This document shows positions 5,454 to 59,507 of a DNA stretch of 64,000 nt, one piece after another. The first letter of the stretch is position 1; every line of letters starts with the position of its first letter. Under the pieces are notes generated by a model. That model was not told the origin of the DNA. It saw only the letters and a program-made list of their open reading frames with translations, and did no database searches. Source of the DNA: Chloroflexota bacterium (lineage in GTDB: Bacteria > Chloroflexota > Dormibacteria > CF-121); assembly GCA_005881175.1 (NCBI GenBank), contig VBEN01000012.1:12667-76666 (forward strand), in the 5' to 3' direction. The position numbers were made by a program, and so were the translations under genes.

Positions 5454-6123
5454 GTTATCGCCGATACTTACTCTCGTGCTGTTCAGCGGCGACCCGATGC
5501 AATTCGTCATCAATGCGCTCTATTTGATTCCGGCGCTGCTTGTCGGACTCATCGGGCACGAGTTCTCCCACGCCGCTGTCGCCGTTGCCCGCGGGGACGA
5601 GACGCCGCGACTCGATGGCCGCCTTTCTCTCAACCCAAGCCATCACCTCGACCCACTCGGGTCGATCGCCGTGTTGCTGGTGGGGTTCGGATGGGCCAAA
5701 CCGGTCCGGATCAACCCGTACCGGATGCGGGGCCCGTTCGACGCCGCTCTGGTCGCCGCGGCGGGTCCCCTCGCCAACCTGGTACTCGCCGTCGCGTTCT
5801 CGATCCCGATCAAGCTCGGCCTCAACGCCGGGACCTTCGATGCCAATTGGCCCCCCTGGCGCCTGCTGGTCGTCGCCTTCTATCTCAATGTTGCTTTGGC
5901 GATTCTGAACATCCTGCCGATTCCACCGCTTGACGGTTACAACTTCTTCTCAACGCTGCTTCGGCGACGATTCGGAGCGTTCTTCTTGTGGATCGACAAG
6001 CACCAGCAGGTCATCATGCTGGTCTTTGTGCTCCTGCTGCTGCTAACCGGCATCCTGAGGTTCATCTATCTTCCCGTCGCCACGCTGATCCTTCGGCTGC
6101 CGCCGTTCCCGGTCGGTACCTGA
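5452..6123 (+). CDS. Site-2 protease family (M50-like) zinc metalloprotease, membrane embedded
   Basis: HEFSHA HExxH motif in a TM helix, LNPxxHLDPLG and LPIPPLDG motifs; alternative start at ATG 5497. Confidence 0.7.
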   Translation: MLSPILTLVLFSGDPMQFVINALYLIPALLVGLIGHEFSHAAVAVARGDETPRLDGRLSLNPSHHLDPLGSIAVLLVGFGWAKPVRINPYRMRGPFDAALVAAAGPLANLVLAVAFSIPIKLGLNAGTFDANWPPWRLLVVAFYLNVALAILNILPIPPLDGYNFFSTLLRRRFGAFFLWIDKHQQVIMLVFVLLLLLTGILRFIYLPVATLILRLPPFPVGT

Positions 6124-6125
6124 CG

Positions 6126-7478
6126 GTGGACGCTCTGCGCGCACTGCCCAGTGTGCATCAGCTGCTCGAGGAGGAGCCGGCAACCACATTGATCGCCGCT
6201 CATGGCCGTCCGCTGGTCCGCTTTGCGGTGCAACGTGTCCTGGAGGAGGAACGCCGGCGAGCGGCGACGAACACATCGCACGCTCGGTGGGCCCGGGTCG
6301 AGGCCACGATTCAGGGCCTGCGCCGGTCGCGTCTTCGGCCGGTGGTCAACGCGACCGGTGTGATTCTGCACACCAACCTGGGGCGGGCACCGCTGGCGGC
6401 GGCGGCGGCCGACGCGACAGCCGGGATCGCGGGGCGCTATTCGACACTCGAGTTCGATCCCCTGACCGGCCGGCGGGGCCGGCGGCATGATCTGCTGGGC
6501 GAGCTGTTGCGCTACCTGACCGGGGCCGAGGCAACGGCGGTGGTCAACAATTGCGCCGCCGCGGTGCTTCTGATGTTGACGGCGCTGGCAAAGGGCAAGG
6601 AGGTCATCGTCGCCCGCGGCGAGCTCGTCGAAATCGGCGGCGGATTCCGGATGCCGGAGGTCATGCGCCTCTCAGGTGCACGCATGGTCGAAGTCGGCAC
6701 CACCAACCGGACTCGCGCAGAGGATTACGCCGCCGCGGTCACGCCCAAAACGGTGGCCATCATGAAGGTGCACGCAAGCAACTTCCAGGTGGTCGGGTTT
6801 ACCGAGAGCGTCGAGCTCAAGCCACTCGCCGCCATCGCCCGGCAGCATCAGTTGCTGCTGCTCCATGACCTGGGAAGCGGCGCCCTGCTCGACACGACGG
6901 CCTTTGGTTTGGCTGCTGAGCCACGTATCCAGGACAGCCTTCTTGCCGATGTCGACCTTGTCGCATCCAGCGCCGACAAGCTGTTGGGCGGCCCTCAGGC
7001 TGGTCTGTTATTCGGTCGAGCGGACCTCGTGGAGCGCGTCATGAAGCACCCGCTGGCGCGCGCGGTGCGGGTCGATAAGCTGACCATTGCGGCCCTCGCC
7101 GCCACCCTCGACCTCTATCTCACCCAATCGTTCGGCGACGTGCCGATCTGGACGATGCTGAGCACCTCCCTCGACTCTGTCCGAAGCCGAGCGCAGGCCT
7201 GGCAGAGCCGCCTGGCGGAACTAGGGGTCGCCGTGGAGCTGGCGGCCGCCGAGTCAACGGTAGGCGGGGGATCGCTACCTGGAGAGAGGCTGCCCACCAC
7301 GGTTGTGGTCATCACGCCGCGGCAGGGCGGTGCCACGGACCTACTGAGGCGTCTCCGTGAGCACGAGCCTCCGGTCATTGGGCGAATCGTTGAGGAGCGC
7401 GTGCTGCTCGACCCACGCACCGTGCTGCCCGATGAAGATGACGTGGTGGTCGACGCCGTAGCCGGCGCGCTGTCATGA
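6126..7478 (+). CDS. selA: L-seryl-tRNA(Sec) selenium transferase
   Basis: SelA hallmarks VVNATGVILHTNLGRAPL and the PLP-lysine motif SSADKLLGGPQAG; GTG 6126 lies immediately after the upstream stop (track ORF start 5988 is inside the previous gene). Confidence 0.85.
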   Translation: MDALRALPSVHQLLEEEPATTLIAAHGRPLVRFAVQRVLEEERRRAATNTSHARWARVEATIQGLRRSRLRPVVNATGVILHTNLGRAPLAAAAADATAGIAGRYSTLEFDPLTGRRGRRHDLLGELLRYLTGAEATAVVNNCAAAVLLMLTALAKGKEVIVARGELVEIGGGFRMPEVMRLSGARMVEVGTTNRTRAEDYAAAVTPKTVAIMKVHASNFQVVGFTESVELKPLAAIARQHQLLLLHDLGSGALLDTTAFGLAAEPRIQDSLLADVDLVASSADKLLGGPQAGLLFGRADLVERVMKHPLARAVRVDKLTIAALAATLDLYLTQSFGDVPIWTMLSTSLDSVRSRAQAWQSRLAELGVAVELAAAESTVGGGSLPGERLPTTVVVITPRQGGATDLLRRLREHEPPVIGRIVEERVLLDPRTVLPDEDDVVVDAVAGALS

Positions 7479-9367
7479 CGGAGCCGATTGCCGGATCGTT
7501 CGTGATTGGCACGGCCGGTCACATCGACCACGGCAAATCCACCCTGGTCAAAGCCCTGACGCAGATCGATCCGGACCGGCTGGAGGAGGAGAAGCGCCGT
7601 GGCATGACCATCGACCTGGGCTTCGCCTACCTGCTGCTTCCCAGTGGACGCCGGGTCGGGATCGTCGACGTGCCCGGACACCAGCGCTTTCTCAAGAACA
7701 TGCTCGCCGGCGTCCATGGCATGGATGCCGTCATGCTGGTCGTGGCCGCCGACGAGGGTCCGATGCCACAAACCCGCGAGCACCTGGCCATCATCGACCT
7801 GCTCGCGATCCAGCATGGGCTCGTGGTGCTGACCAAGGCCGATCTGGTCGATGCGGCATGGCTCCGCCTGATGCGTGAGGAGGTCGCCGGCCTCATCCAG
7901 GGGACCGCGATGCAGCGTGTGCCCATCGTGGCGGTGTCGGGCACGAGCGGCGAGGGCCTCGACGAGCTGCGCGCGGCCCTCGATGCGGAGCTCGCGCAAA
8001 CCCAACCTCGGCCCGACGTGGGCCGGCCGCGGCTGCCAGTCGATCGTTCCTTCGCCATGGCCGGGTTCGGAACCGTCGTTACCGGCACTCTGGTTGGTGG
8101 TGCGCTGCGCCAGGGTGCCGAGGTGATCGTGATGCCGGGCGAGCGCCGGGTCCGGATCCGCGGACTCCAGCAGCACAATCGGCCGGTGGAGGAGGCGCGG
8201 CCGGGGAGCCGCACGGCCGTCAATCTCAGCGGCGTCGACCACTCCCAGCTGCGGCGAGGGCACGTACTGGCGCTGCCGGGGACCTTGCCCGTCACGCGGC
8301 GGCTCGACGCCCGCCTGGTCGTGCTGCCCGATGCCGCGCAACCACTGCGTCACCGCCAGCGCCTCTTGATCTACCACGAGACCGCCGAGGTGATGGTGGA
8401 GCTCAGCTTGCTCGAGCGCGATGAGCTGCGCCCGGGGGAGGAGGGATGGGCCCAGCTGTTCGTGGACAGCCCGATGGTTGCGCTCGACGGTGATCGGTTC
8501 ATCCTCCGCGTCCCATCACCGGCGACGACGGTTGCCGGCGGGGTGATCGTCGACAGCGCGCCGCGCCGCCACCGTCGCCGAGACGGGATGGTCCTCAGCG
8601 ACCTGGAGCTGCGCGAGCGCGCGGACCCGGGAACCGCGGTCGTGCTCGAGCTGGCCAAGCATGCCTGGGGCCTCAGCGAAGCCGAGCTTGGCCGCCGCCT
8701 TGGACGTTCCAAGCTGCAGCTCGACGACACGCTGGCACCCGTCGCCGATCGCGGCGCGATCCGGCGGCTGGCCTCGCGCTGCGTCACCCGCGATCAGTGG
8801 GACCGGCTCTCGGCCCGGGTGACCACAGCCTTGAACGCCTATCACCAGGCGCAACCCCTTCGCCCCGGGATGTCCAAGGAAGAGCTACGTAGCCGCACCG
8901 GTATCCCGGCCGAACTCTTTACGCCGGCGCTCGGCTCGCTCACGAGCGATGGCATCGTGGTCGAGCGCAACGGAGAGGTGGCCGCGGCGGGTCACCGGCA
9001 GGGCCTCACACCGGAGCAGGAGTCGGCGGCGGTTGGCGTGCTCGCCGACCTGGAACGGCAACCGTTCAGCCCTCCGCCGTTGGCCGATCTCGTGCGCCGG
9101 CATCAGCTGCCGCCCGCGCTGCTGCAATACCTCATCACTCAGGGACGCGTCGTACGCGTCAATGACGACACCGTCTTCGCCCGGTCCGCCTACGATGACG
9201 CAGTCAGCCGGTTGCGGGCACATCTCACCGAGCATCGGACCTTGACCGTGGCGGCGGCCCGCGATGTGCTGGGATCGACTCGGCGCTACGTTCTTCCCTT
9301 GCTCGAGTGGCTGGATGCCCAGAAGATCACGCGCCGGGTCGGAGATGACCGTATCCTGAGGGGTTGA
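7475..9367 (+). CDS. selB: Selenocysteine-specific translation elongation factor
   Basis: GTPase G1-G4 motifs ([19 protein letters not shown]) followed by winged-helix domains; 630 aa; ATGA overlap with the selA stop. Confidence 0.9.
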
Positions 9368-15488: not shown

Positions 15489-15931
15489 AGGTGGTCCTGA
15501 TCGAGGACGTCAAAGGCACCGGCAAGGCCGGCGAGACCAAGGATGTTGCCGACGGCTTTGCCCGTAATTTCCTGATCCCTCGCAAGCTGGCCCAGCCGGC
15601 AACCCGCGGCGCGCAGCAGCAGGTCGATCGTCAGAAGGCCACGACGGTCCAGCGGGAGCAGCGCGAGCTGGCCGACGCCAAGACATTAGCCGTGCGGCTC
15701 GAGGCCGTCCAGGTCGTGTTGAAGCTGCGCAGCGGGAAGGAAGGCAAGCTGTTCGGGGCCGTCACCAACGCCGATGTGGCGTCGGCGCTCAAGCAGCAGC
15801 ACGGCATCACGCTCGACCGACGGAAGATCGAGTTCGACGAGCCCGTCAAGGCGATGGGACCGGGCAGCGCGCAGGTGAAGCTCCATCGTGAGGTCACCGC
15901 CCGGATCCCGCTGATGGTCACCTCGGCTTGA
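15485..15931 (+). CDS. rplI: 50S ribosomal protein L9
   Basis: [36 protein letters not shown] is the canonical L9 N-terminus. Confidence 0.9.
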
Positions 15932-18466
15932 CGGTTGACCTAAGGCGCGCGCCGGCTCCGCCGGCGGCCGGTGGCCGCGTGCCGCCTCACAACCTGGAGG
16001 CCGAGGCGTCGGTGCTCGGTTCGCTGATGCTCGATCGCAACGCCGTGGTTCGGGTGGCCGACTTCCTCCGTCCGGAGGACTTCTATCTGGACCATCACGC
16101 GCAGGTCTACCGGGCCGCGCTGAACCTGTACGACCGCGCCGATCCCATCGACCTGCTGACACTCGCGGCCGAGCTGGAGAAGATGCGCGTCCTCGAACGG
16201 ATCGGCGGGCAAGCGTTCCTGGCCGAGCTCGAGAGCGGCGTACCCACCGCCGCCAATGTCGAGTACTACGGCCACCTGGTCGAAGAAGCGGGCACGAAAC
16301 GTAAGTTGATCAGCGCCGGCGGGCGCATCACCGCACTCGGCTTCGACGAGAGCACCCCAGCAAACCAGGCGCTGGATACCGCCGAAGGTGTGATCTTCAA
16401 CATCGCCGAAGGCCGCATCACGCAGGACTTCGTCGCCCTCAAAGACATCCTCAAGACGACCTGGGACCAGATCGAGCAGATCCACAAGGACCAGTCGGTC
16501 ATCTCCGGCGTGCCGAGTGGATTCAACGACCTGGATGCCAAGACCGGAGGCTTCCAAAAGTCCGACCTGATCATCATTGCTGCGAGGCCGGGAGTGGGTA
16601 AGTGCGTAATTTCGACCACACTCGTAGACGATCCCGAGACGGGGGAAAGGCTGTCGATCGAAGAATTCGTTAGACGTAAGAGGCCTTCGGTCTTCGGCCT
16701 TTCACCACACGGTCGGATCGAGCCCCGTCAGATAGGCGCCTGGGTCGACAGCGGTGTCCAGCCGTGTTTTGCGGTCACCACGCAAACGGGTAGGCGAGTT
16801 GAAGTCACTGGACATCATCCGTTTCTAACCGTGTCAGGCTGGCAGCCTCTGCACGACCTCGTGACCGGTGATGCGATCGCCGTTCCTCGGTGCCTGCCGC
16901 TGTTCGGCAAGGAAAGCTTGCCGGCTCCGCTAGCTCGCCTGCTCGGTTACTTCGTTGGCGATGGAGGGCTCTCCGGGAATGCTCCGGAATTTACGAACAT
17001 CGATGCGGAAATAGTCGATGACTTCAAGGACGCCGTCGCGTCCCATTTCCCGACCTGCCATGTGAGACAGCATGGACCTCACTATGTTGTTTCCGCTTTT
17101 CATAAGCTCCTCGGCCCATATTCATGGCAGCCCAATCCAGTCATTCGTTGGCTGAAGGAATTCAGCCTTTGGGGAAAGAAGTCGGAAGCTAAGCGGTTCC
17201 CCGAAGCGGCCTGGCGATGGGACAAGGAGACGCTTAGAGAATTCATTCGCGGATTGATGTCATGCGATGGGAGCATCTTCAGGACGCAGAACGGACGTCC
17301 CCGAGTCGAATTCAGCGTTGCCTCAGAAGGGCTAGCGAAGGATATGCATCACGCGTTCGTCCGATTTGGGATAGTGGCGCGCCTCTATCGAAAATCGGAG
17401 CGATGTTGGCGGATACAAGTAACTGACTCTGAGTCGGTCGCTACGTATCAAAGGGAAATCGGTTGGATTGGCGAGAAGTCCGCCCGGTTCGCGTCAAATC
17501 TTCCTGTATTTCGGCGCAACACGGGTCATCTCCCCGTTGTCGTCTGGGAAATGGTAGGTCAGGCGGCGGCTATGCAGGGTCTTGGCTGGTCCACACTCGC
17601 GGTGCTCTCAGGGGAAAGAGCCCATACTTCGAAATTCGAAACGTATAACCCTCGCACGAGTCATGGCCTGTCTCAGCGACGATTAGGAATTTTCAATGAG
17701 GTCCTTGAGGATTGGTGGCTCAGTGAGCTTGCCAATCCGGAACTCTATTGGGACCGGATCCTCTCCATCGAACCGATCGGCGAACACCAGGTCTACGATC
17801 TCGCGGTCCCTTCAGGAGCGAATTTCATCGCGGAAGACGTCCTCCTCCATAACACGTCTCTGACTCACGCGCTTGTTGTGCAGCGAGGCGTCGGTCGACT
17901 CGTATCGGCTGCGCACCGGGCTGTTGAAGGACGCCGAATGGCCCCGCATCGCGCAGGCCATGGGCGCGCTGTCCGAAGCGCAGATCTTTATCGATGACTC
18001 GCCCAACGTGTCCGTCATGGAAATGCGCACTAAGGCTCGTCGACTCAAATCGGCCAATAATCTCGGATTGATCATTGTCGATTACCTGCAGTTGATGCAG
18101 GGCCGCAACCAGGAGAACCGCGTACAGGAGGTCTCAGACATCTCTCGCGGTTTGAAGAGCTTGGCGCGCGAGTTGCAAATTCCCGTCATTGCATGCTCAC
18201 AGTTGAGCCGCGAGCCCGAGAAACGACCCGACCATCGCCCGCAGCTCTCGGATCTTCGCGAGTCCGGGACCCTCGAGCAAGATTCGGATTTGGTTCTGTT
18301 TATCTACCGGGAGCGTTTTTACAACGACAACGTCGCGGAGGACAGGCGCAATGTCGCGGAGATCATCATCGCCAAGCACCGAAATGGCCCGACCGGAAAG
18401 CTCGAGCTCGCGTTCATCGACGAGCAGACGAAGTTCGCCAATCTCGACCGGCGACGCGGGAACTAA
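15928..18466 (+). CDS. dnaB: Replicative DNA helicase DnaB, interrupted by a P-loop intein; C-extein frameshifted and internally deleted (possible pseudogene or assembly error)
   Basis: N-extein (15928-16602) ends at the Walker [11 protein letters not shown]; intein 16603-17853; C-extein T(+1) is followed in a different frame (17864-18466) by DnaB motifs H2-H4 ([19 protein letters not shown]...EQD); about 30 codons equivalent to B. subtilis AFALNIA...FSLEMS are missing. Confidence 0.8.
16603..17853 (+). mobile_element. DnaB P-loop intein (417 aa) with LAGLIDADG homing endonuclease domain
   Basis: Starts with Cys after GVGK, ends ...[21 protein letters not shown] then Thr; Hint blocks resemble the Ssp DnaB intein ([13 protein letters not shown]..., [12 protein letters not shown]...); two LAGLIDADG motifs ([21 protein letters not shown]). 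Confidence 0.85.
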
Positions 18467-44713: not shown

Positions 44714-45622
44714 GTGGACGAACTGACCCCTACCGTGGGCGACCGCCGGGGAACCTGGAAAGTCAAAGCGGGGCTGGCCGAGATGCTCAAAGGGGGCGTC
44801 ATCATGGATGTCGTCACCCCCGAGCAGGCCAAGATCGCCGAGGATGCCGGGGCGGTGGCGGTCATGGCGCTGGAGCGGGTTCCGGCGGACATCCGGCGCG
44901 AGGGTGGGGTGGCGCGGATGAGCGATCCCGGCCTGATCGCGGCCATCATCGATGCGGTGACCATCCCGGTGATGGCCAAGTGCCGCATCGGGCATTTCGT
45001 CGAGGCGCAAATCCTGGAATCGCTCGGCGTCGACTACATCGACGAGAGTGAGGTGCTGACCCCGGCCGACGAGGAGCATCACATCAACAAGCATATTTTT
45101 AAGATCCCGTTCGTCTGTGGGTGCCGAGACCTGGGCGAAGCCCTGCGTCGCATCGCCGAGGGTGCGGCGATGATTCGGACCAAGGGCGAGGCCGGGACCG
45201 GAAACGTCGTCGAAGCCGTCCGCCACATGCGGGCTGTGACCAGCGCCATCCGCAAGCTCCATGGCGCGGGTCCCGAGGAGCTGGTGATGGAGGCCAAGCG
45301 AATCGGTGCGCCGGCGGATCTGCTCGAAGAGAGCGCTCGCCTGGGGCGGCTGCCGGTCGTCAATTTCGCCGCCGGGGGCCTCGCGACTCCGGCTGACGCC
45401 GCGCTCATGATGCAGCTGGGCTGCGATGGGATCTTCGTCGGCTCGGGCATCTTCAAAGCAGAGAATCCGGCCGCCCGCGCCAAGGCCATCGTGGCGGCGA
45501 CCACGTACTTCGATCGGCCGGACATCCTTGCCGACGCGTCCAAGAGCCTCGGCAAGGCGATGCGGGGGTTGGAGATCGGGGCGATTCCCCAGGAGGAGCT
45601 GCTCGCCGGCAGAGGCTGGTGA
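44714..45622 (+). CDS. pdxS: Pyridoxal 5'-phosphate synthase, lyase subunit
   Basis: KGGVIMDVV...[20 protein letters not shown]...GGVARM is the canonical PdxS sequence. Confidence 0.9.
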
Positions 45623-45658: not shown

Positions 45659-46258
45659 GTGCCAAACGAGCGCTTGAGACGTAAGCGCGTCGGCGTCCTT
45701 GCGCTGCAGGGGGATTTTCGAGAGCACCTGGCGGCGCTGCGCGCCTGCGAGGTCGAAGGCGTTCCCATCCGGCTGGCTGCCGACCTGGACGCGGTCGATG
45801 CCCTGATCCTGCCGGGCGGCGAGAGCACGACCATGGCGCGACTGTTGGAACCCGGGCTAGCGGGGTCCATCCAGCGCCGCAGCGCGGCGGGGATGCCGGT
45901 GTTGGGCACCTGCGCCGGGATGATCTTGATGGCCCGAAAAATCCACGGCGGCCGGGCAGACCAGGAGCCGCTGAAGCTGATCGATATCTCGGTGCGTCGC
46001 AACGCGTACGGGCGCCAGATCGACAGCTTCGAGGCGGAGGTGGAATCCCGCGCCATCGGTGGCACTGCCCCGGCGGTCTTCATCCGCGCGCCGCAGGTGA
46101 CCGAGCGGGCGCCGGACGTTCAGGAGCTGGCCAACCACGGTGGCCAGACGGTAGCGGTGAAGCAGGGCAACCGGCTGGCGCTCGCCTTCCATCCCGAGCT
46201 CACGCCGGACCGGCGCTGGCATCAGTACTTCCTGTCGCTCAACGGTGATCATCGATGA
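45659..46258 (+). CDS. pdxT: Pyridoxal 5'-phosphate synthase, glutaminase subunit
   Basis: VGVLALQGDFREH...LILPGGESTT...GTCAGMIL class I GATase triad. Confidence 0.85.
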   Translation: MPNERLRRKRVGVLALQGDFREHLAALRACEVEGVPIRLAADLDAVDALILPGGESTTMARLLEPGLAGSIQRRSAAGMPVLGTCAGMILMARKIHGGRADQEPLKLIDISVRRNAYGRQIDSFEAEVESRAIGGTAPAVFIRAPQVTERAPDVQELANHGGQTVAVKQGNRLALAFHPELTPDRRWHQYFLSLNGDHR

Positions 46259-53283: not shown

Positions 53284-55807
53284 TCCGGCGACGGTCTTCC
53301 TGCTGCTGCTTGCGGTCCTCGGAGGCGCCTGGGCCGCGGGGTTACTTCGTCCGCACTATGAGGGGGGCCGCCTGACGATACGGCTCTTCCGAGCCAATCG
53401 AGTCCTGCTCACGGTTGATTTCCGGGATACCTGGCTGCTGCTGGGATTCGTGCTGCTCATGGGCTGGGCGGTGGCGATCGCCGTGGAGCGTTCGGCCTGG
53501 GTGCCCGACACGGAAGGGCGGCTGGTACCGGCTCTGGCGATCGCAACCGGGCTGGGATGGATCTTTGCGATTGCCCGGGCATCGCGCCTGGCGTATGCCG
53601 CCATGTCGGGTCTGGCGGTGTTTGGCAGCCTGGCGCTCCTGACGCCATCGCCGCTTACCTCGGGCGGAGCGCTGCCGGCGATCAGAACGTGGCTCCTGGC
53701 GCTTCCGAATCGGACCAATACGCTCCTGCTGATGAGCCTGCTGCTGATGTTCGTGGCCACCGGGCTGTGGACCAGTTGGTGGGTGTTCTTGCGGCGCAAT
53801 GGGCTGGTGGCGCTGCTGCCCTCAGGCACCATCCTCGCGGTGGAGATCATCAACGACACCAGCCCCGGCCTTACGCTCTTTACGCTCATCTGGCTCACCG
53901 CCGCCGCCGCCGTCTTGCTGCGGCTGAACTTCGTCGCCCTCAAGGAGGGATGGCGGACACGCCGTCTTCCACGCGCGGCCGATACCGGCTGGACCTTCGG
54001 AGAAGTCGGCATCGAGGCGACCGCAGCCATCCTCGTCATCGCCTTTCTGCTGCTTCCGCCCTTGAGCAGCAGCGACATCAGCGCCGCCCTGATCCCTGGC
54101 ACGATGAACCCCGACGCGATCCACCCGTTCGGGATCGGGAGCAACAATTCCAAACCCGGATCGGTCGGCTCCATCGGCTATAGCGAGGTGGTCCGACCGG
54201 GCTCGCAGCTCAAGGCGAAATCGCAAACCGTGATGGTGGTCACCGGTGACACGCCGGTCTTCTATCCGTACTGGCGTGGCATTGCGCTGGCGGGCTGGGA
54301 CGGCATCACCTGGTACGAGCTGCCCAGCAGGGCCGGCGGCGTCCCGGTGCGACAGCAGCCGCTGGTGGTGGCACGCGCAAGCGTCCCACGCGATGATTTG
54401 CCGGCCGATTCGCAGCGCATCCAGCTGCTTCACAATTCGTTTCACGTCGTGGTGCCGCCCGAGCAAACCCTGGGAACCGTGTTCAGCGCCGGTGAGATCC
54501 TCTCCGTCGACAACCAGCCAACAACCGTCCGCGGCATCATGACGTCGGTTCCGGCGCCACCGGGGTCGAACGTGTCGTTGGTGAATGTCGCCGGAGACAG
54601 CGACTCCACGGCCACCTTCGACACCGTCGATCGCATTCGCTTCGCGAGGCGGCTGCAGCCCCCCTACAACTACTCGGTCACTGAAGCGATTCCCAACGTT
54701 GATATCCAGGATCTGCAGAGCGCGGGCACGGATTATCCAGCGTGGCTGGCACCCTACACCACGCTCTACGAGGATGGCAGGGTCGCCCAGGGATACTCGA
54801 CGGCCCGTGATGCCGAAGTCGCGACGCTCGCCCAGTCGATCGTCCGGTCAGCCGGTGCCACCACCCCGTATGACCAGGCCAAGGCGATCGAATCCTGGTT
54901 CCTGGCCAAGGGCCGTTTTACCTATACGCTGAAGCCGCCCCTCGCCAGGTCCGGCGAGCGGCCGCTGGACTTCTTCCTCTTCACCTCGAAGAAGGGGTTC
55001 TGCCAGGACTTTTCCACCGCCATGAACGTCATGCTGCGGACGCTGCGGATCCCGAGCCGGCAGATGAGCGGGTTTGGCGCGGGTGTCTTCGACGAGAAGA
55101 CGCATCAGTACACGGTGAACTCCCTGGACGCGCATAGCTGGGTGGAAGTCTTCTTCCCCGGGTATGGATGGATCCCCTTCGAACCGACGCCAGACGGCAT
55201 CAACACACCGGTAAACCGGCCGGCCACCAAGGAAGCCCTCAATGCCCCACAGTCGGCCAACGTACAGCCCAGCGCCCGGATTCCGCCCGGCTTGCGAGAG
55301 CCTCCCGGTGCGTCGACGGGATTCGGCTCGAGCGCTCCCTTCGCCGATATATGGCGCCCGATATTGACGGTGGGCGCGGGCCTGTTGCTCCTGGCGCTTA
55401 TCGCCGTTCTCCTCGCGCTGCGCTGGCTGATGGCGGTTCGCGACGTGCCGCGCATCTGGCGCCGGCTGCTCTTCCTGGGAGACCGGCTGAAGGTCCCGCG
55501 GCACCTGGGCGATACGCCGCAAGAATTCGGTGGACGGCTGGCGGCCTCGATGCCGGCACTTGATACCGAGGTGCGGCGGCTGGCGACGCTCTACACGCGC
55601 GCCAGCTTCCGTCGTGGAGGGCTTAGTCCGGATGAGCTCGCTGAAGCCCGAAAGGCCTGGAGCCAGATCCGCGGCAGCTACGCCGGGCTGGTGGCGCGAG
55701 CCTGGCGGGATGCCCTTCGCCAGGGCCGCGTCGTCAGTGCCGACGACGTCGTCAATGCAGAGGTAGTTGCAGGGTCAGAAAGTCACGGGCCATCACGGCC
55801 CCGTTGA
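53234..55807 (+). CDS. Transglutaminase-like domain membrane protein (TgpA-like)
   Basis: Multi-TM N-terminal region, then TGc core GFCQDFSTAMNVMLRTLRIPSR...HSWVEVFFPGYGWIPFEPT (Cys-His-Asp), C-terminal TM. Confidence 0.8.
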   Translation: MAGRTTWSRSDELPQVNPATVFLLLLAVLGGAWAAGLLRPHYEGGRLTIRLFRANRVLLTVDFRDTWLLLGFVLLMGWAVAIAVERSAWVPDTEGRLVPALAIATGLGWIFAIARASRLAYAAMSGLAVFGSLALLTPSPLTSGGALPAIRTWLLALPNRTNTLLLMSLLLMFVATGLWTSWWVFLRRNGLVALLPSGTILAVEIINDTSPGLTLFTLIWLTAAAAVLLRLNFVALKEGWRTRRLPRAADTGWTFGEVGIEATAAILVIAFLLLPPLSSSDISAALIPGTMNPDAIHPFGIGSNNSKPGSVGSIGYSEVVRPGSQLKAKSQTVMVVTGDTPVFYPYWRGIALAGWDGITWYELPSRAGGVPVRQQPLVVARASVPRDDLPADSQRIQLLHNSFHVVVPPEQTLGTVFSAGEILSVDNQPTTVRGIMTSVPAPPGSNVSLVNVAGDSDSTATFDTVDRIRFARRLQPPYNYSVTEAIPNVDIQDLQSAGTDYPAWLAPYTTLYEDGRVAQGYSTARDAEVATLAQSIVRSAGATTPYDQAKAIESWFLAKGRFTYTLKPPLARSGERPLDFFLFTSKKGFCQDFSTAMNVMLRTLRIPSRQMSGFGAGVFDEKTHQYTVNSLDAHSWVEVFFPGYGWIPFEPTPDGINTPVNRPATKEALNAPQSANVQPSARIPPGLREPPGASTGFGSSAPFADIWRPILTVGAGLLLLALIAVLLALRWLMAVRDVPRIWRRLLFLGDRLKVPRHLGDTPQEFGGRLAASMPALDTEVRRLATLYTRASFRRGGLSPDELAEARKAWSQIRGSYAGLVARAWRDALRQGRVVSADDVVNAEVVAGSESHGPSRPR

Positions 55808-56477
55808 CCGAGCTCTCGCCGCCCCGGTGCGTGAGGATGAAGCGCACCGACGGGTGACGCGTCATCAGCTCATCGATGTCTTTGCGGGCGAGGTGCAGCT
55901 CGCCGCCCGGGGCGTCATAGGTCATTTCGCTGATCACGTGATCTGACGCCTCGATCAGCGCGTCGAGCTGGGGCGACATCTCGGCGTCACCCGTGTACCC
56001 GAGGCGGACGCCGTCCCGCTCGATCACAAAGCCGAGGCAGTCCAGCCGGCTCGCGTGCTGCATCTTGAACGCCTGCCCCCGGCTGCCGTCAAGCTGGAAC
56101 GAATCGCCGTCAGCAAGCTCCTGAACGCGCAGCTGCAACCGCTGCCAGCTCATCCGACGCATCTCCTCGCCCCAGGCAAGGTCGAGTAACCGTTCGAGGT
56201 ACGCGGTTGTTCCTCGAGGTCCATAGATACTGAGTGACGGCGGTCGGTCATTCAGCATGACGCGGCCCAGGATCAACCAGGCAAGGCCAAATGTGTGGTC
56301 GGCGTGGAAGTGACTGAGCACGACCGCCCGCGGCTCGTCGAGTGAAACGCCGACACGCGGCAAATGAACAGTCAGCGGCGCGCCGGCATCCATCAGGATC
56401 TTGCGATCGACCAGGATCGACGAGTTATAGGCGTGCGGCGCAAACGCCGCGCCAGTACCCAGAAACGTGACCTCCAC
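55752..56477 (-). CDS. MBL-fold metallo-hydrolase
   Basis: HFHADHTFG metal-binding motif; 241 aa. Confidence 0.75.
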   Translation of the reverse strand: MEVTFLGTGAAFAPHAYNSSILVDRKILMDAGAPLTVHLPRVGVSLDEPRAVVLSHFHADHTFGLAWLILGRVMLNDRPPSLSIYGPRGTTAYLERLLDLAWGEEMRRMSWQRLQLRVQELADGDSFQLDGSRGQAFKMQHASRLDCLGFVIERDGVRLGYTGDAEMSPQLDALIEASDHVISEMTYDAPGGELHLARKDIDELMTRHPSVRFILTHRGGESSVNGAVMARDFLTLQLPLH

Positions 56478-56507
56478 CGGGATGACGGTAGCAGACTGGG
56501 TGACGCG

Positions 56508-56999
56508 TCAATTCAGGTCGACCAGGCCATCGAAGAACTGCGGCCAGTCGTCCTGCCCACCGCCCCAGGTGGCAGAAAGCTGGGCCGGACGCTGGTCGTT
56601 GACGATCAGGATCGTCCAGGTCGCCGGCGGTCCCCCCATGTATTCGCCAGGGATCGCGTAATCGCCTGAAACCGCAATCACCCAGATGAAGTGATCAGGG
56701 CTCGTGTCGTGACCAATGTTCTCTCCCGACCGCGAAGCCGCGCGCTCCAGGTCCGACTCGCGAACCAGTTTGGCGGCGTGATGAGCCGTCTGTTGGGCCT
56801 GCTTGCCGAGGGCCGCATCGATCGCCTCCTGCCTTAAGAGCTGCGGGTGATGCCCGAGTAAGCCGACAAGCAGGAGGACGACCAGAGTCGTGATGGCAAC
56901 CGGAACCCACGGTCGGAGCCGATCAGAGCGGAGCGCGCTCGGCACATCAACGCAACGAGAATCATCGGGGTCTCCTAGCAGGCGTCGAGTACAGTGCAA
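56508..56999 (-). CDS. Hypothetical membrane-anchored protein
   Basis: Single TM helix (VAITTLVVLLLVGLLG) followed by a soluble domain; start uncertain. Confidence 0.35.
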   Translation of the reverse strand: MHCTRRLLGDPDDSRCVDVPSALRSDRLRPWVPVAITTLVVLLLVGLLGHHPQLLRQEAIDAALGKQAQQTAHHAAKLVRESDLERAASRSGENIGHDTSPDHFIWVIAVSGDYAIPGEYMGGPPATWTILIVNDQRPAQLSATWGGGQDDWPQFFDGLVDLN

Positions 57000-57001
57000 T
57001 C

Positions 57002-58051
57002 GTGAGTACGGTTGAGAAAGTGCGGCTCACGCAGTGGTCGCACGGCGCGGGTTGAGCCTGCAAGATCGGTCCTGAGGACCTGGCTCAGGTCTTGAGCCAC
57101 TTGCCCAAAACGCTCGCGAACCCGGATGTGCTGGTGGGGCTGGAGACGGGCGATGACGCCGCCGTCTACCGGCTGCGGCCCGACCTCGCGCTAGTGGTCA
57201 CGACGGACTTCTTCACCCCGGTGGTGGATGATGCGTATACCTTCGGGGCGATCGCCGCCGCCAACGCGCTGAGCGACATCTACGCGATGGGGGCGCAGCC
57301 TTTGATGGCCGTCAATCTCGTCGCGTTCCCCATCAAAGAGCTGCCCGGGTCTGTGCTGGCCGACATCCTTCGCGGCGGCCTCGACAAAGTTCGCGAGGCT
57401 GGGATCGACATCCTCGGTGGTCACAGCATCGATGATCACGAGCCGAAGTACGGGCTCGCGGTCACCGGCACGGTCCACCCCGATCGGGTGGTCCGCAACC
57501 GCGGCGGCCAGCCAGGCGACCGGCTCGTGCTCACGAAAGCGCTCGGCACCGGCATCATCACCACCGCCATCAAGCATCAGGTGGCGCCGGCGGCCTCAGC
57601 CGACGCGGCCATCCAGGGCATGCTGGCACTGAATCGCGAGGCGGCGCAAGCCATGGCCACGGTCTCGGTGCACGCGGCCACCGACGTGACCGGTTTCGGG
57701 TTGCTTGGACACCTCCACTATCTGGCGCGGGCCTCGGGGCTGGCGGCCCGCGTCGATGCCGCCACCGTACCGCTGCTTTTGGGGGCCGAGGCGCTGGCCG
57801 ATGCTGGTGAAGTACCCGGTGGCACACGCGCGAACGAACGGTTCATGGTGTCGAGGGTGCGCTGGCCGGCCGCACTGTCTGCTGCCCGGCGGACGCTGCT
57901 CTGCGACGCGCAGACCTCGGGTGGGCTGCTGATCGCCCTACCGGCCGAGCAGGTTGATCCACTGCTCGAAGCCCTTGGTCGTCGGGGCGCGGCCGGCTGG
58001 ACGGTCGGCGAACTCAGCACCGGCGAAGCCGGCGTCATCACCGTCGTCTGA
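57002..58051 (+). CDS. selD: Selenide, water dikinase (selenophosphate synthetase), a selenoprotein with an in-frame UGA (Sec) codon at 57053-57055
   Basis: Upstream of the track ORF (TTG 57092) the same frame reads VSTVEKVRLTQWSHGAG-[TGA]-ACKIGPEDLAQVL, aligning to E. coli [20 protein letters not shown] with TGA at the Cys17 position; rest of the protein is SelD (AIR-synthase-related); GTG 57002 start (alternative 57020). Confidence 0.8.
57061..57093 (+). ncRNA. Candidate bacterial SECIS element within selD mRNA
   Basis: CAAGA-UC-GGUCC-UGA-GGACC-UGGCUCAGG-UCUUG: inner perfect 5-bp stem with UGA loop starting 12 nt after the UGA codon, closed by an outer CAAGA/UCUUG stem. Confidence 0.5.
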
Positions 58052-58221: not shown

Positions 58222-58788
58222 GTGCACGCACTGGGCAAGGCGGCGTCCGATGACGATCGCCCACTCATCGAGCGGGTACGTCGGGGAGACCAGGATGCGG
58301 CCCGCACCCTGTATGAGCGTTACTTCGATCGCATCTACAACTATGTTTATGCCCGGCTGGGACGAGCCGAAGATGCGGAGGACCTGGCCATCGACACGAT
58401 GACCCGGAGCCTGACCCGCCTCGATCTGTTCCAGGACCAGGGCGTCGCCTTCTCCTCCTGGGTCTATCGAATTGCGCACAACGCGACCATTGATCATTAC
58501 CGCCGGAATGGCAAGGTCACCCTCGTCCCCCTGGACAACGCCGTCCTGCCTCAAACGGCGGACCCCGCGGAGCTGGCGCTGGAGCAACTCTCGAACGAGG
58601 ATCTGCGCGTGGCCCTGCGCGAGCTGACCGAGGAGCAGCAGCAGGTCCTGATCCTGCGCTTCTTCCAGGATCTGACCGCGGCCCAGGTGGCCGACATCAT
58701 GGGCAAGTCGGTCGGCGCCGTGCAGGCGCTTCAGCATCGAGCGCTCGGTTCACTCGAGCGCGTGCTGCAAGGACGGGTAGCCAATTGA
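58222..58788 (+). CDS. ECF-type sigma-70 factor
   Basis: Region 2 (LIERVRRGDQDAARTLYERYFDRIYNYVYARL...), region 4 (LTEEQQQVLILRFFQDLTAAQVADIMGKSVGAVQALQHRAL). Confidence 0.8.
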   Translation: MHALGKAASDDDRPLIERVRRGDQDAARTLYERYFDRIYNYVYARLGRAEDAEDLAIDTMTRSLTRLDLFQDQGVAFSSWVYRIAHNATIDHYRRNGKVTLVPLDNAVLPQTADPAELALEQLSNEDLRVALRELTEEQQQVLILRFFQDLTAAQVADIMGKSVGAVQALQHRALGSLERVLQGRVAN

Positions 58789-59507
58789 TGCCAGAAGCGC
58801 GGCGGCTGGAGGCGCTGGCGGAGCGGATGCGAGCCGTCGATCCGGTCGCGCCCTCGCCGGGCGCCAAGATCAGGGGTTGGAACCTGGTGCTCGCCGGCGT
58901 CACCCAATCCGCGACCCGCCGGCCACGCGTCTCCGTGACCCGGCTGGCGCTGGCGGCGGCTGCAGCCGCGGTATTGCTGGTGTCGGGCGCCGTGGCCGCA
59001 TCCGCCGATAGCCTGCCGGATTCAGCCCTATACCCACTGAAGGGCGCCTGGGAGCAGGTCCGCGGGACGCTCGCCTTTAGTCCATCCGACAAGCTGACCT
59101 TCCATCTCGACCTCTCCCGAACGCGGCTCGCCGAGGCGGAGGCGATGATCGCCCGTCACCGGCTCGACCTGGCGGCCCGGGCATTCGACCGGCTCGACAA
59201 CGAGCTCGACGACGCCGCGCAGCTGGTGTGGACGGCGAAGCAGACCAACCAGGCGGCGGCCGCCGACATGGAGAATCGTCTCCAGCAGGCGATTAGCACG
59301 CACGAGCTGCAGCTGGCCGGCCTGCAGGGGCAGGTCACGAATCCAACCGCACTGAGCGCGATCAGCCGGGCTCGCGACCGCGCCGTCGCGGCATGGCAGG
59401 CCGCGGAGAAGTCGGGGAACAATGGCAACTCGAATCAGTCGCCGAATGGCGGCGGCGGCCCGGGGAATGGTACCGCAACCTCCCCCCATCCCACGCCGAA
59501 GCACTAG
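58785..59507 (+). CDS. DUF5667-like membrane protein (putative anti-sigma partner)
   Basis: ATGA overlap with the sigma gene; TM helix then SLPDSALYPLKGAWEQV-type DUF5667 region; Gly/Asn-rich tail. Confidence 0.55.
   Translation: MMPEARRLEALAERMRAVDPVAPSPGAKIRGWNLVLAGVTQSATRRPRVSVTRLALAAAAAAVLLVSGAVAASADSLPDSALYPLKGAWEQVRGTLAFSPSDKLTFHLDLSRTRLAEAEAMIARHRLDLAARAFDRLDNELDDAAQLVWTAKQTNQAAAADMENRLQQAISTHELQLAGLQGQVTNPTALSAISRARDRAVAAWQAAEKSGNNGNSNQSPNGGGGPGNGTATSPHPTPKH

Follow-up and report, generated by a model that had tools for sequence, protein, structure and literature searches.

The selD gene in the window (the whole stretch of 64,000 nucleotides that was analysed) very probably encodes a selenocysteine (Sec)-containing selenophosphate synthetase, in which an in-frame UGA stands at the catalytic position and is followed by a SECIS predicted from the aligned sequences to consist of two tandem hairpins (Table 1). 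That selD is a selenoprotein gene had been proposed in a preliminary description of this DNA, and the proposal is borne out by a match to the SelD equivalog family TIGR00476, by TGA at the same codon in 52 loci and by a Sec-specific covarying hairpin downstream of it. The structure that had been assigned to the SECIS is replaced here by a different one.

Table 1. Coordinates of selD, of its predicted recoding signals and of the Sec machinery genes in the window.
Feature	Position	Strand	Description
selD, full CDS	57002..58051	+	GTG start, 349 codons and stop; ordinary TGA stop at 58049-51
Predicted Sec codon UGA	57053..57055	+	Residue 18, equivalent to E. coli Cys17
Suppressed synonymous variation	57050..57103	+	Codons -1 to +16; marks the extent of the RNA element within the CDS
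Basal stem, 5′ arm GCAAG	57060..57064	+	Pairs with 57100-57104; in the MFE and centroid fold
Stem 1, GGUCC-UGA-GGACC	57068..57080	+	Small hairpin, loop sequence not conserved
Stem 2, UGGCUCA(G)-GUC-(U)UGAGCCA	57081..57099	+	7-8 bp hairpin, invariant loop G-U at 57089-90
Basal stem, 3′ arm CUUGC	57100..57104	+	Pairs with 57060-57064
selA, L-seryl-tRNA(Sec) selenium transferase	5988..7478	+	TIGR00474, 537.8 bits against a cut-off of 267.9
selB, Sec-specific elongation factor	7475..9367	+	TIGR00475, 359.7 bits against a cut-off of 242, full length

Read in frame from GTG 57002 the gene gives VSTVEKVRLTQWSHGAG-TGA-ACKIGPEDLAQVL with the TGA at 57053-55, and in its relatives the corresponding start codon is ATG or GTG. 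The list of open reading frames starts selD at TTG 57092 (product 57092..58051, 319 aa) and, as had been pointed out before, is thereby without the SelD N-terminus. When the TGA is translated as Cys the resulting 349-aa protein matches TIGR00476, the NCBIfam equivalog for the SelD family (selenophosphate synthetase, EC 2.7.9.3), with 401.5 bits against a cut-off of 125, positions 1-310 of the 311 in the profile corresponding to selD residues 8-317 such that position 1 lies upstream of the TGA. SelD also matches PRK00943 (382.6 against a cut-off of 299), and the PurM-like domains AIRS (PF00586) and AIRS_C (PF02769) are recorded for the 319-aa product. In a phmmer comparison with the PDB the alignment to E. 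coli SelD (3u0o) spans residues 6-344 and places residue 18, the one encoded by the TGA, opposite Cys17 and residue 21 opposite Lys20, in keeping with the earlier placement of the TGA on the catalytic Cys. The glycine-rich N-terminal loop reads HGAG-[UGA]-ACK where 3u0o has HGAG-C17-GCK20. TTG 57092 is the earliest start codon 3′ of the TGA, and since none lies between the two the catalytic loop is lost with any downstream start, so that no alternative start after the TGA keeps the active-site motif.

The UGA codon is conserved among relatives of the gene. A scan for homologues that took one genome per species returned 80 loci, the closest 33 of which show ~73-90% identity and come from MAGs labelled mostly Chloroflexi or Candidatus Dormiibacterota, which assigns the window to this soil lineage. 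TGA is found at the same codon in every one of these 33 that covers the site and also in distant loci labelled Anaerolineae, Dehalococcoidia, Nitrospirae, Methylomirabilales, Bacillota, Desulfotomaculum and others, such that within the 80-locus scan 52 sequences, the window included, have TGA at the active-site column and 28 loci have TGT or TGC. The 17 codons 5′ of the TGA are kept as protein, with synonymous variation, in the 52 loci across phyla. In the Dormibacterota the third positions of the Gly and Ala codons (GGN and GCN) just 5′ of the TGA vary freely, which shows that the region upstream of it is translated and under protein-level selection. TGA is the stop of 22 of the 31 confident genes in the window, selD included, indicating the standard genetic code with local recoding and ruling out a reassigned code.

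If the TGA were a true stop the gene would yield a truncated SelD from TTG 57092 or from ATC 57065, or would be a pseudogene. This is what the 319-aa and 328-aa products annotated by gene callers and NCBI for the window and its sister genomes amount to, but a SelD truncated in this way would be without the loop that carries the catalytic Sec/Cys17 and Lys20. The protein-level conservation of the 17 upstream codons and the alignment of the SelD profile from a position upstream of the TGA likewise speak against termination at this codon, and a nonsense mutation would not persist jointly with a Sec-specific covarying hairpin. A true stop is as such hardly credible, and a pseudogene, a sequencing error or a downstream start is effectively excluded by the conservation of the TGA, the translation of the codons upstream of it and the standard code.

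The comparative evidence for a SECIS comes from a gapless alignment of 63 nt around the TGA in the 52 Sec-type sequences, comprising 42 distinct rows. RNAalifold recovers a single consensus hairpin 3′ of the UGA, formed by columns 39-45 and 49-55 (57082-88 and 57092-98) with the loop G-U-N, corresponding to stem 2 in Table 1. With the eight pairs of stem 2 (57081-88 with 57092-99) given as a specified structure 95.5% of cells are paired, while sliding of the partner lowers the pairing to 21-45%. At columns 42-52 the pair is UA in 22 rows, GC in 12, CG in three and AU in one, a covariation in which a synonymous Ala change is paired with a change between Ser, Arg, Gly or Cys, and the covariation score of stem 2 was reached by none of 500 shuffles. 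The loop is equally constant, starting with G or CG and continuing with U in all 47 of the 47 distinct Sec-type sequences. The mis-called start TTG 57092 sits within this stem.

In the published bSECIS model the loop has 3-9 nt, with a G at position one or two that mostly precedes another G or a U, the stem has 4-16 bp, the loop is 16-37 nt from the UGA and the MFE does not exceed -7.5 kcal/mol (PMC13188914). Stem 2 falls within all of the published limits, having GUC or GGUCU as its loop, 7-8 bp, a UGA-loop distance of 32-33 nt and a folding energy of -9.7 kcal/mol for the stem alone. The conserved loop G is typically found ~20 nt after the UGA (PMC4605307); in stem 2 it lies ~34-35 nt after the UGA, which puts the G-U ~14 nt beyond the typical distance and near the far end of the accepted range. 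On these comparisons stem 2 is proposed as the SelB-binding core of the SECIS.

The MFE fold of 57050-57112 is a Y shape in which the basal helix GCAAG/CUUGC encloses both stem 1 and stem 2, the 45-nt core (57060-57104) folding at -20.6 kcal/mol. Stem 1 is built from GGTCC at 57068-72 (12 nt after the TGA), TGA at 57073-75 and GGACC at 57076-80. Its arms are paired in 89.5% of cells, and in four sequences both bases of the closing pair have changed, from G-C to A-U; 14 of 42 sequences lack the innermost pair and G is missing from the loop in 12 of 47. The basal helix is paired in 83.3% of cells with three CG to UA double changes, a weaker support that comes mainly from the Dormibacterota. Folding energies of the single sequence are not significantly better than those of shuffles (z = -0.95 and -1.5), and the case accordingly rests on the comparative data. 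Rfam gave no match for the element anywhere in the window at the gathering score, and a search of 56950-57200 at E <= 10 returned two chance matches, both downstream.

The preliminary description had placed the SECIS differently, with the GGUCC-UGA-GGACC hairpin as an apex on an outer (lower) stem CAAGA/UCUUG; in such a structure SelB would read the UGA triloop ~20 nt after the Sec codon. The sequence elements it named are correct (CAAGA at 57061-65, TCTTG at 57090-94 and GGTCC/TGA/GGACC across 57068-80), and the apical hairpin stands as a fairly conserved structure, its loop being the part that is not conserved. The loop of stem 1 is 17 nt away from the UGA, which is near the typical distance of ~20 nt (PMC4605307), and with a G at its second position in the window the hairpin formally falls within the loose bSECIS limits on loop, stem and spacing; stem 1 is also enriched in Sec-type genes. 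The lower stem fares otherwise: 77.6% of its cells are paired, and 29 of 42 sequences do not form the A-U pair at columns 20-49. Because its 3′ arm falls on nucleotides that the covarying stem 2 uses for its loop and 3′ arm, the two stems are mutually exclusive. Stem 1 plus the lower stem gives -7.0 kcal/mol against -20.6 kcal/mol for the Y-shaped fold, while stem 1 alone (-5.8 kcal/mol) is weaker than the bSECIS limit of -7.5 kcal/mol. A SECIS of this form is improbable, and the assignment should move to 57081-57099 with the GGUCC hairpin kept as an accessory stem and the outer stem rejected. Stem 1 is likely to be an accessory or spacer hairpin, though with its loop at the typical distance it may itself be the site that SelB binds.

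The two hairpins distinguish Sec-type from Cys-type genes. Sec-type sequences form 6.8 of the seven stem-2 pairs; in 27 Cys-type selD genes the same coordinates yield 2.7 of seven. When the Dormibacterota are excluded the 19 remaining Sec-type sequences form 6.5 of seven stem-2 pairs (Cys-type 2.7) and 3.6 of the four core pairs of stem 1 (Cys-type 1.6), with Mann-Whitney p values of ~3e-8 and ~4e-8 for the two stems that overstate the independence of what are related sequences. Part of the pairing signal could stem from shared ancestry or from protein constraint, the hairpins overlapping the conserved GPxDLAQVL. In this stretch the Sec-type ...GPxDLAQVL..., whose residues encode both hairpins, stands where the Cys-type has ...RPQxLExVL..., a replacement of the kind that selection for two hairpins would produce. 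Synonymous variation is reduced over the same region, synonymous codon entropy in 32 Dormibacterota genes being 0.25 bits across codons -1 to +16 compared with 1.0 gene-wide, the lowest value of any 16-codon window of selD. The region 57050-57103 also uses codons that are rare in the genome (GGU 14%, CCU 7%, GCU 7% and UUG 9%).

Sec-type and Cys-type SelD can be told apart by the peptide right after the active site, which is U-A-[CSA]-K-[IV]-[GS]-P-x-D-L-A-Q-V-L in the former (loci L033-L076) and C-A-C-K-[LI]-R-P-Q-x-L-E-x-[VI]-L in the latter (loci L038-L080). Locus L049 (DLASVLAVLG) stands apart in that just two of its seven stem-2 pairs form, and it may use a different structure.

In the mechanism proposed for selD translation would begin at GTG 57002, and with the UGA at 57053-55 in the A site SelB carrying Sec-tRNA(Sec) would be tethered via a SECIS within the next ~50 nt, Sec being inserted at the position equivalent to E. 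coli Cys17. The SECIS would be formed by stem 1 at 57068-80 and, directly after it, stem 2 at 57081-99, with the short basal helix (57060-64 with 57100-04) closing both hairpins in this clade. Stem 2, with its 7-8 bp and a G-U in a loop of 3-5 nt, is the putative site for the winged-helix domains of SelB, and the folding of stem 1 probably takes 13 nt out of the spacer. With stem 1 folded 12 single-stranded nt would separate the structure from the UGA, a distance close to the 11 nt of fdhF.

SelB binds the fdhF mRNA of E. coli at a hairpin of minimally 17 nt that is spaced 11 nt from the UGA and needs the bulged U17 and the loop bases G23 and U24 (PMC8659212). The element in selD resembles it in being a hairpin within the CDS with G-U in a small apical loop and differs in that the base of stem 2 lies 25-26 nt rather than 11 nt from the UGA, in having no bulged U in stem 2 and in the extra 13-nt hairpin that occupies the spacer. 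The loop region of stem 2, CAGGUCU, is one that we take to be identical to the fdhF apex. By analogy stem 2 would presumably be read, like the fdhF SECIS, by the winged-helix domains of SelB, and the window SECIS appears to work like the fdhF element while not being of the fdhF subtype.

Among bacterial selenoproteins FdhA and SelD are the two of widest distribution (PMC1794560, PMC13188914), with SelD described in a 2026 review as the second most expansive bacterial selenoprotein family (PMC13188914). The bacterial Sec-SelD proteins of Clostridiales, Deltaproteobacteria, Pasteurellales and Aquifex aeolicus (2yye/2zod) belong to the same enzyme family as that of the window and likewise have UGA at the catalytic position in the glycine-rich N-terminal loop and an in-CDS SECIS directly after it, and the SelD of A. 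aeolicus has the same Sec-type signature, GU-A-[CSA]-K-[IV]-[GS]-P-x-DL. The difference from these known proteins lies in the host lineage, here uncultured soil Dormibacterota, and no paper linking Dormibacterota with selenocysteine was found in the literature searched. The earlier suggestion that selenophosphate synthesis is itself Sec-dependent in this organism is correct in its logic but not new.

For the Sec-SelD of Clostridiales, supplement S6 of Mariotti et al. (2015, PMC4561486; Fig. SM6.1A) reports that stem 2 appears to lie 3′ of stem 1 and that stem 2 alone fits the bSECIS. As far as that supplement describes the Clostridiales-type bSECIS, the UGA is followed there too by two stem-loops that are arranged one after the other (stem 1, then stem 2) instead of nested, and three Firmicutes-like loci (L056, L062 and L070) show this tandem layout in register with the window, the layouts being compared by description. 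Set against the same supplement the Dormibacterota have an extra 5-bp basal helix, GCAAG/CUUGC, which gives the Y shape. Taking the supplement's description of the Clostridiales together with the Firmicutes-like loci the tandem architecture is not new.

A broader proposal, which is possible but rather doubtful, is that the tandem hairpin represents a distinct, ancient and SelD-specific class of bacterial SECIS present in Dormibacterota, Chloroflexota, Firmicutes-like lineages and others, with stem 1 as an obligatory 13-nt spacer. Were this so, SelB would bind the distal G-U loop ~35 nt after the UGA at an effective distance of ~11-12 nt as in E. coli. Sec use in aerobic soil Dormibacterota would then have been systematically overlooked, and SelD might maintain the Sec trait there.

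The selA and selB genes lie ~48-51 kb upstream of selD, their identity and approximate distance (~48 kb) as given in the preliminary description being upheld by equivalog matches to TIGR00474 and TIGR00475. The C-terminus of SelB contains the Pfam domains SelB-wing_2 and SelB-wing_3, the SECIS-binding winged-helix domains. Neither ARAGORN nor Rfam at the gathering score detected a tRNA-Sec (selC) gene in the 64-kb window, and ARAGORN gave none within 3 kb of selD in the 52 related Sec-type loci. The result for the window would fit a reading in which the UGA is read through without Sec, by a near-cognate Cys or Trp tRNA, and the structure acts as a general read-through stimulator; Sec-independent read-through elements beside a UGA have been proposed for hymenopteran SPS1 (PMC4561486). 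Against this stand the complete selA and selB in the window, with a SelB that retains its SECIS-binding domains, and the G-U loop signature of SelB-type bacterial SECIS in stem 2, while bacterial Sec-SelD is itself a well-established family (PMC1794560). Read-through of this kind is very unlikely, and insertion of Sec at the UGA is the reading preferred here.

A GC3 read-through scan of the window yielded no convincing second selenoprotein gene, the scan being insensitive in that it missed selD's own TGA, and two of its nine candidates were examined individually. The first, pdxS/pdxT (44714-45622 and 45659-46258, +), was rejected as a selenoprotein gene as it consists of two complete genes (SOR_SNZ and SNO) in a shared frame. 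The two are separated by a TGA and 36 nt, with GC-rich SECIS-like hairpins. The second, at 55752-56999 (-), was rejected as a TGA-interrupted gene since the match to the RNase Z profile takes in the downstream ORF from its residue 1. Here a TGA separates two reading frames that are in phase, a 163-aa ORF without a match to any family and a gene for an MBL-fold, RNase Z-like protein, and the 163-aa ORF divergently adjoins the start of selD.

The Sec nature of selD has been missed in the public records examined, which comprise sister MAGs and metagenome calls. The truncated 319-aa product has an exact match on seven metagenome contigs, and its 90% cluster holds the NCBI entries TME24649.1 and TMF90631.1, both named 'selenide, water dikinase SelD'. 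These two proteins are 328 aa long and start with MGPEDLAQ after the Sec codon (window 57065-58051), TMF90631.1 being identical to the window across its 328-aa length. The full-length SelD with X at the TGA had no exact match in the protein collection. Automated surveys would score soil Dormibacterota as having a defective SelD or as selenoprotein-free, while the corrected annotation of selD would mark the lineage as a selenocysteine user and adds ~50 sequences with clean covariation to the tandem-hairpin SelD SECIS. The main value of the result is in annotation, with the understanding of selenocysteine decoding unchanged; selD here is an ordinary, hitherto unannotated representative of a widespread selenoprotein family.

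Elsewhere in the window dnaB (15928-18466, +) is interrupted behind the P-loop by an intein that carries a LAGLIDADG domain (…ARPGVGK|CVIS…VLLHN|TSL), and GC falls to 0.59 over 16001-18000 in this region. The dnaB frame after the intein is not DnaB, the remaining C-terminal domain (…RRRGN*) lying in the +1 frame from ~17834, and the window lacks ~25 residues, the FSLEMS motif among them, that normally stand between GKT and …RLLCSEA. An assembly error or a pseudogene could account for this, as could something unusual. Directly 3′ of selD (58222-59507, +) are an ECF sigma factor with a BldN-family match and a DUF5667 protein, the latter probably its anti-sigma partner, and the same sigma-factor gene follows selD on two short metagenome contigs (L081 and L082).
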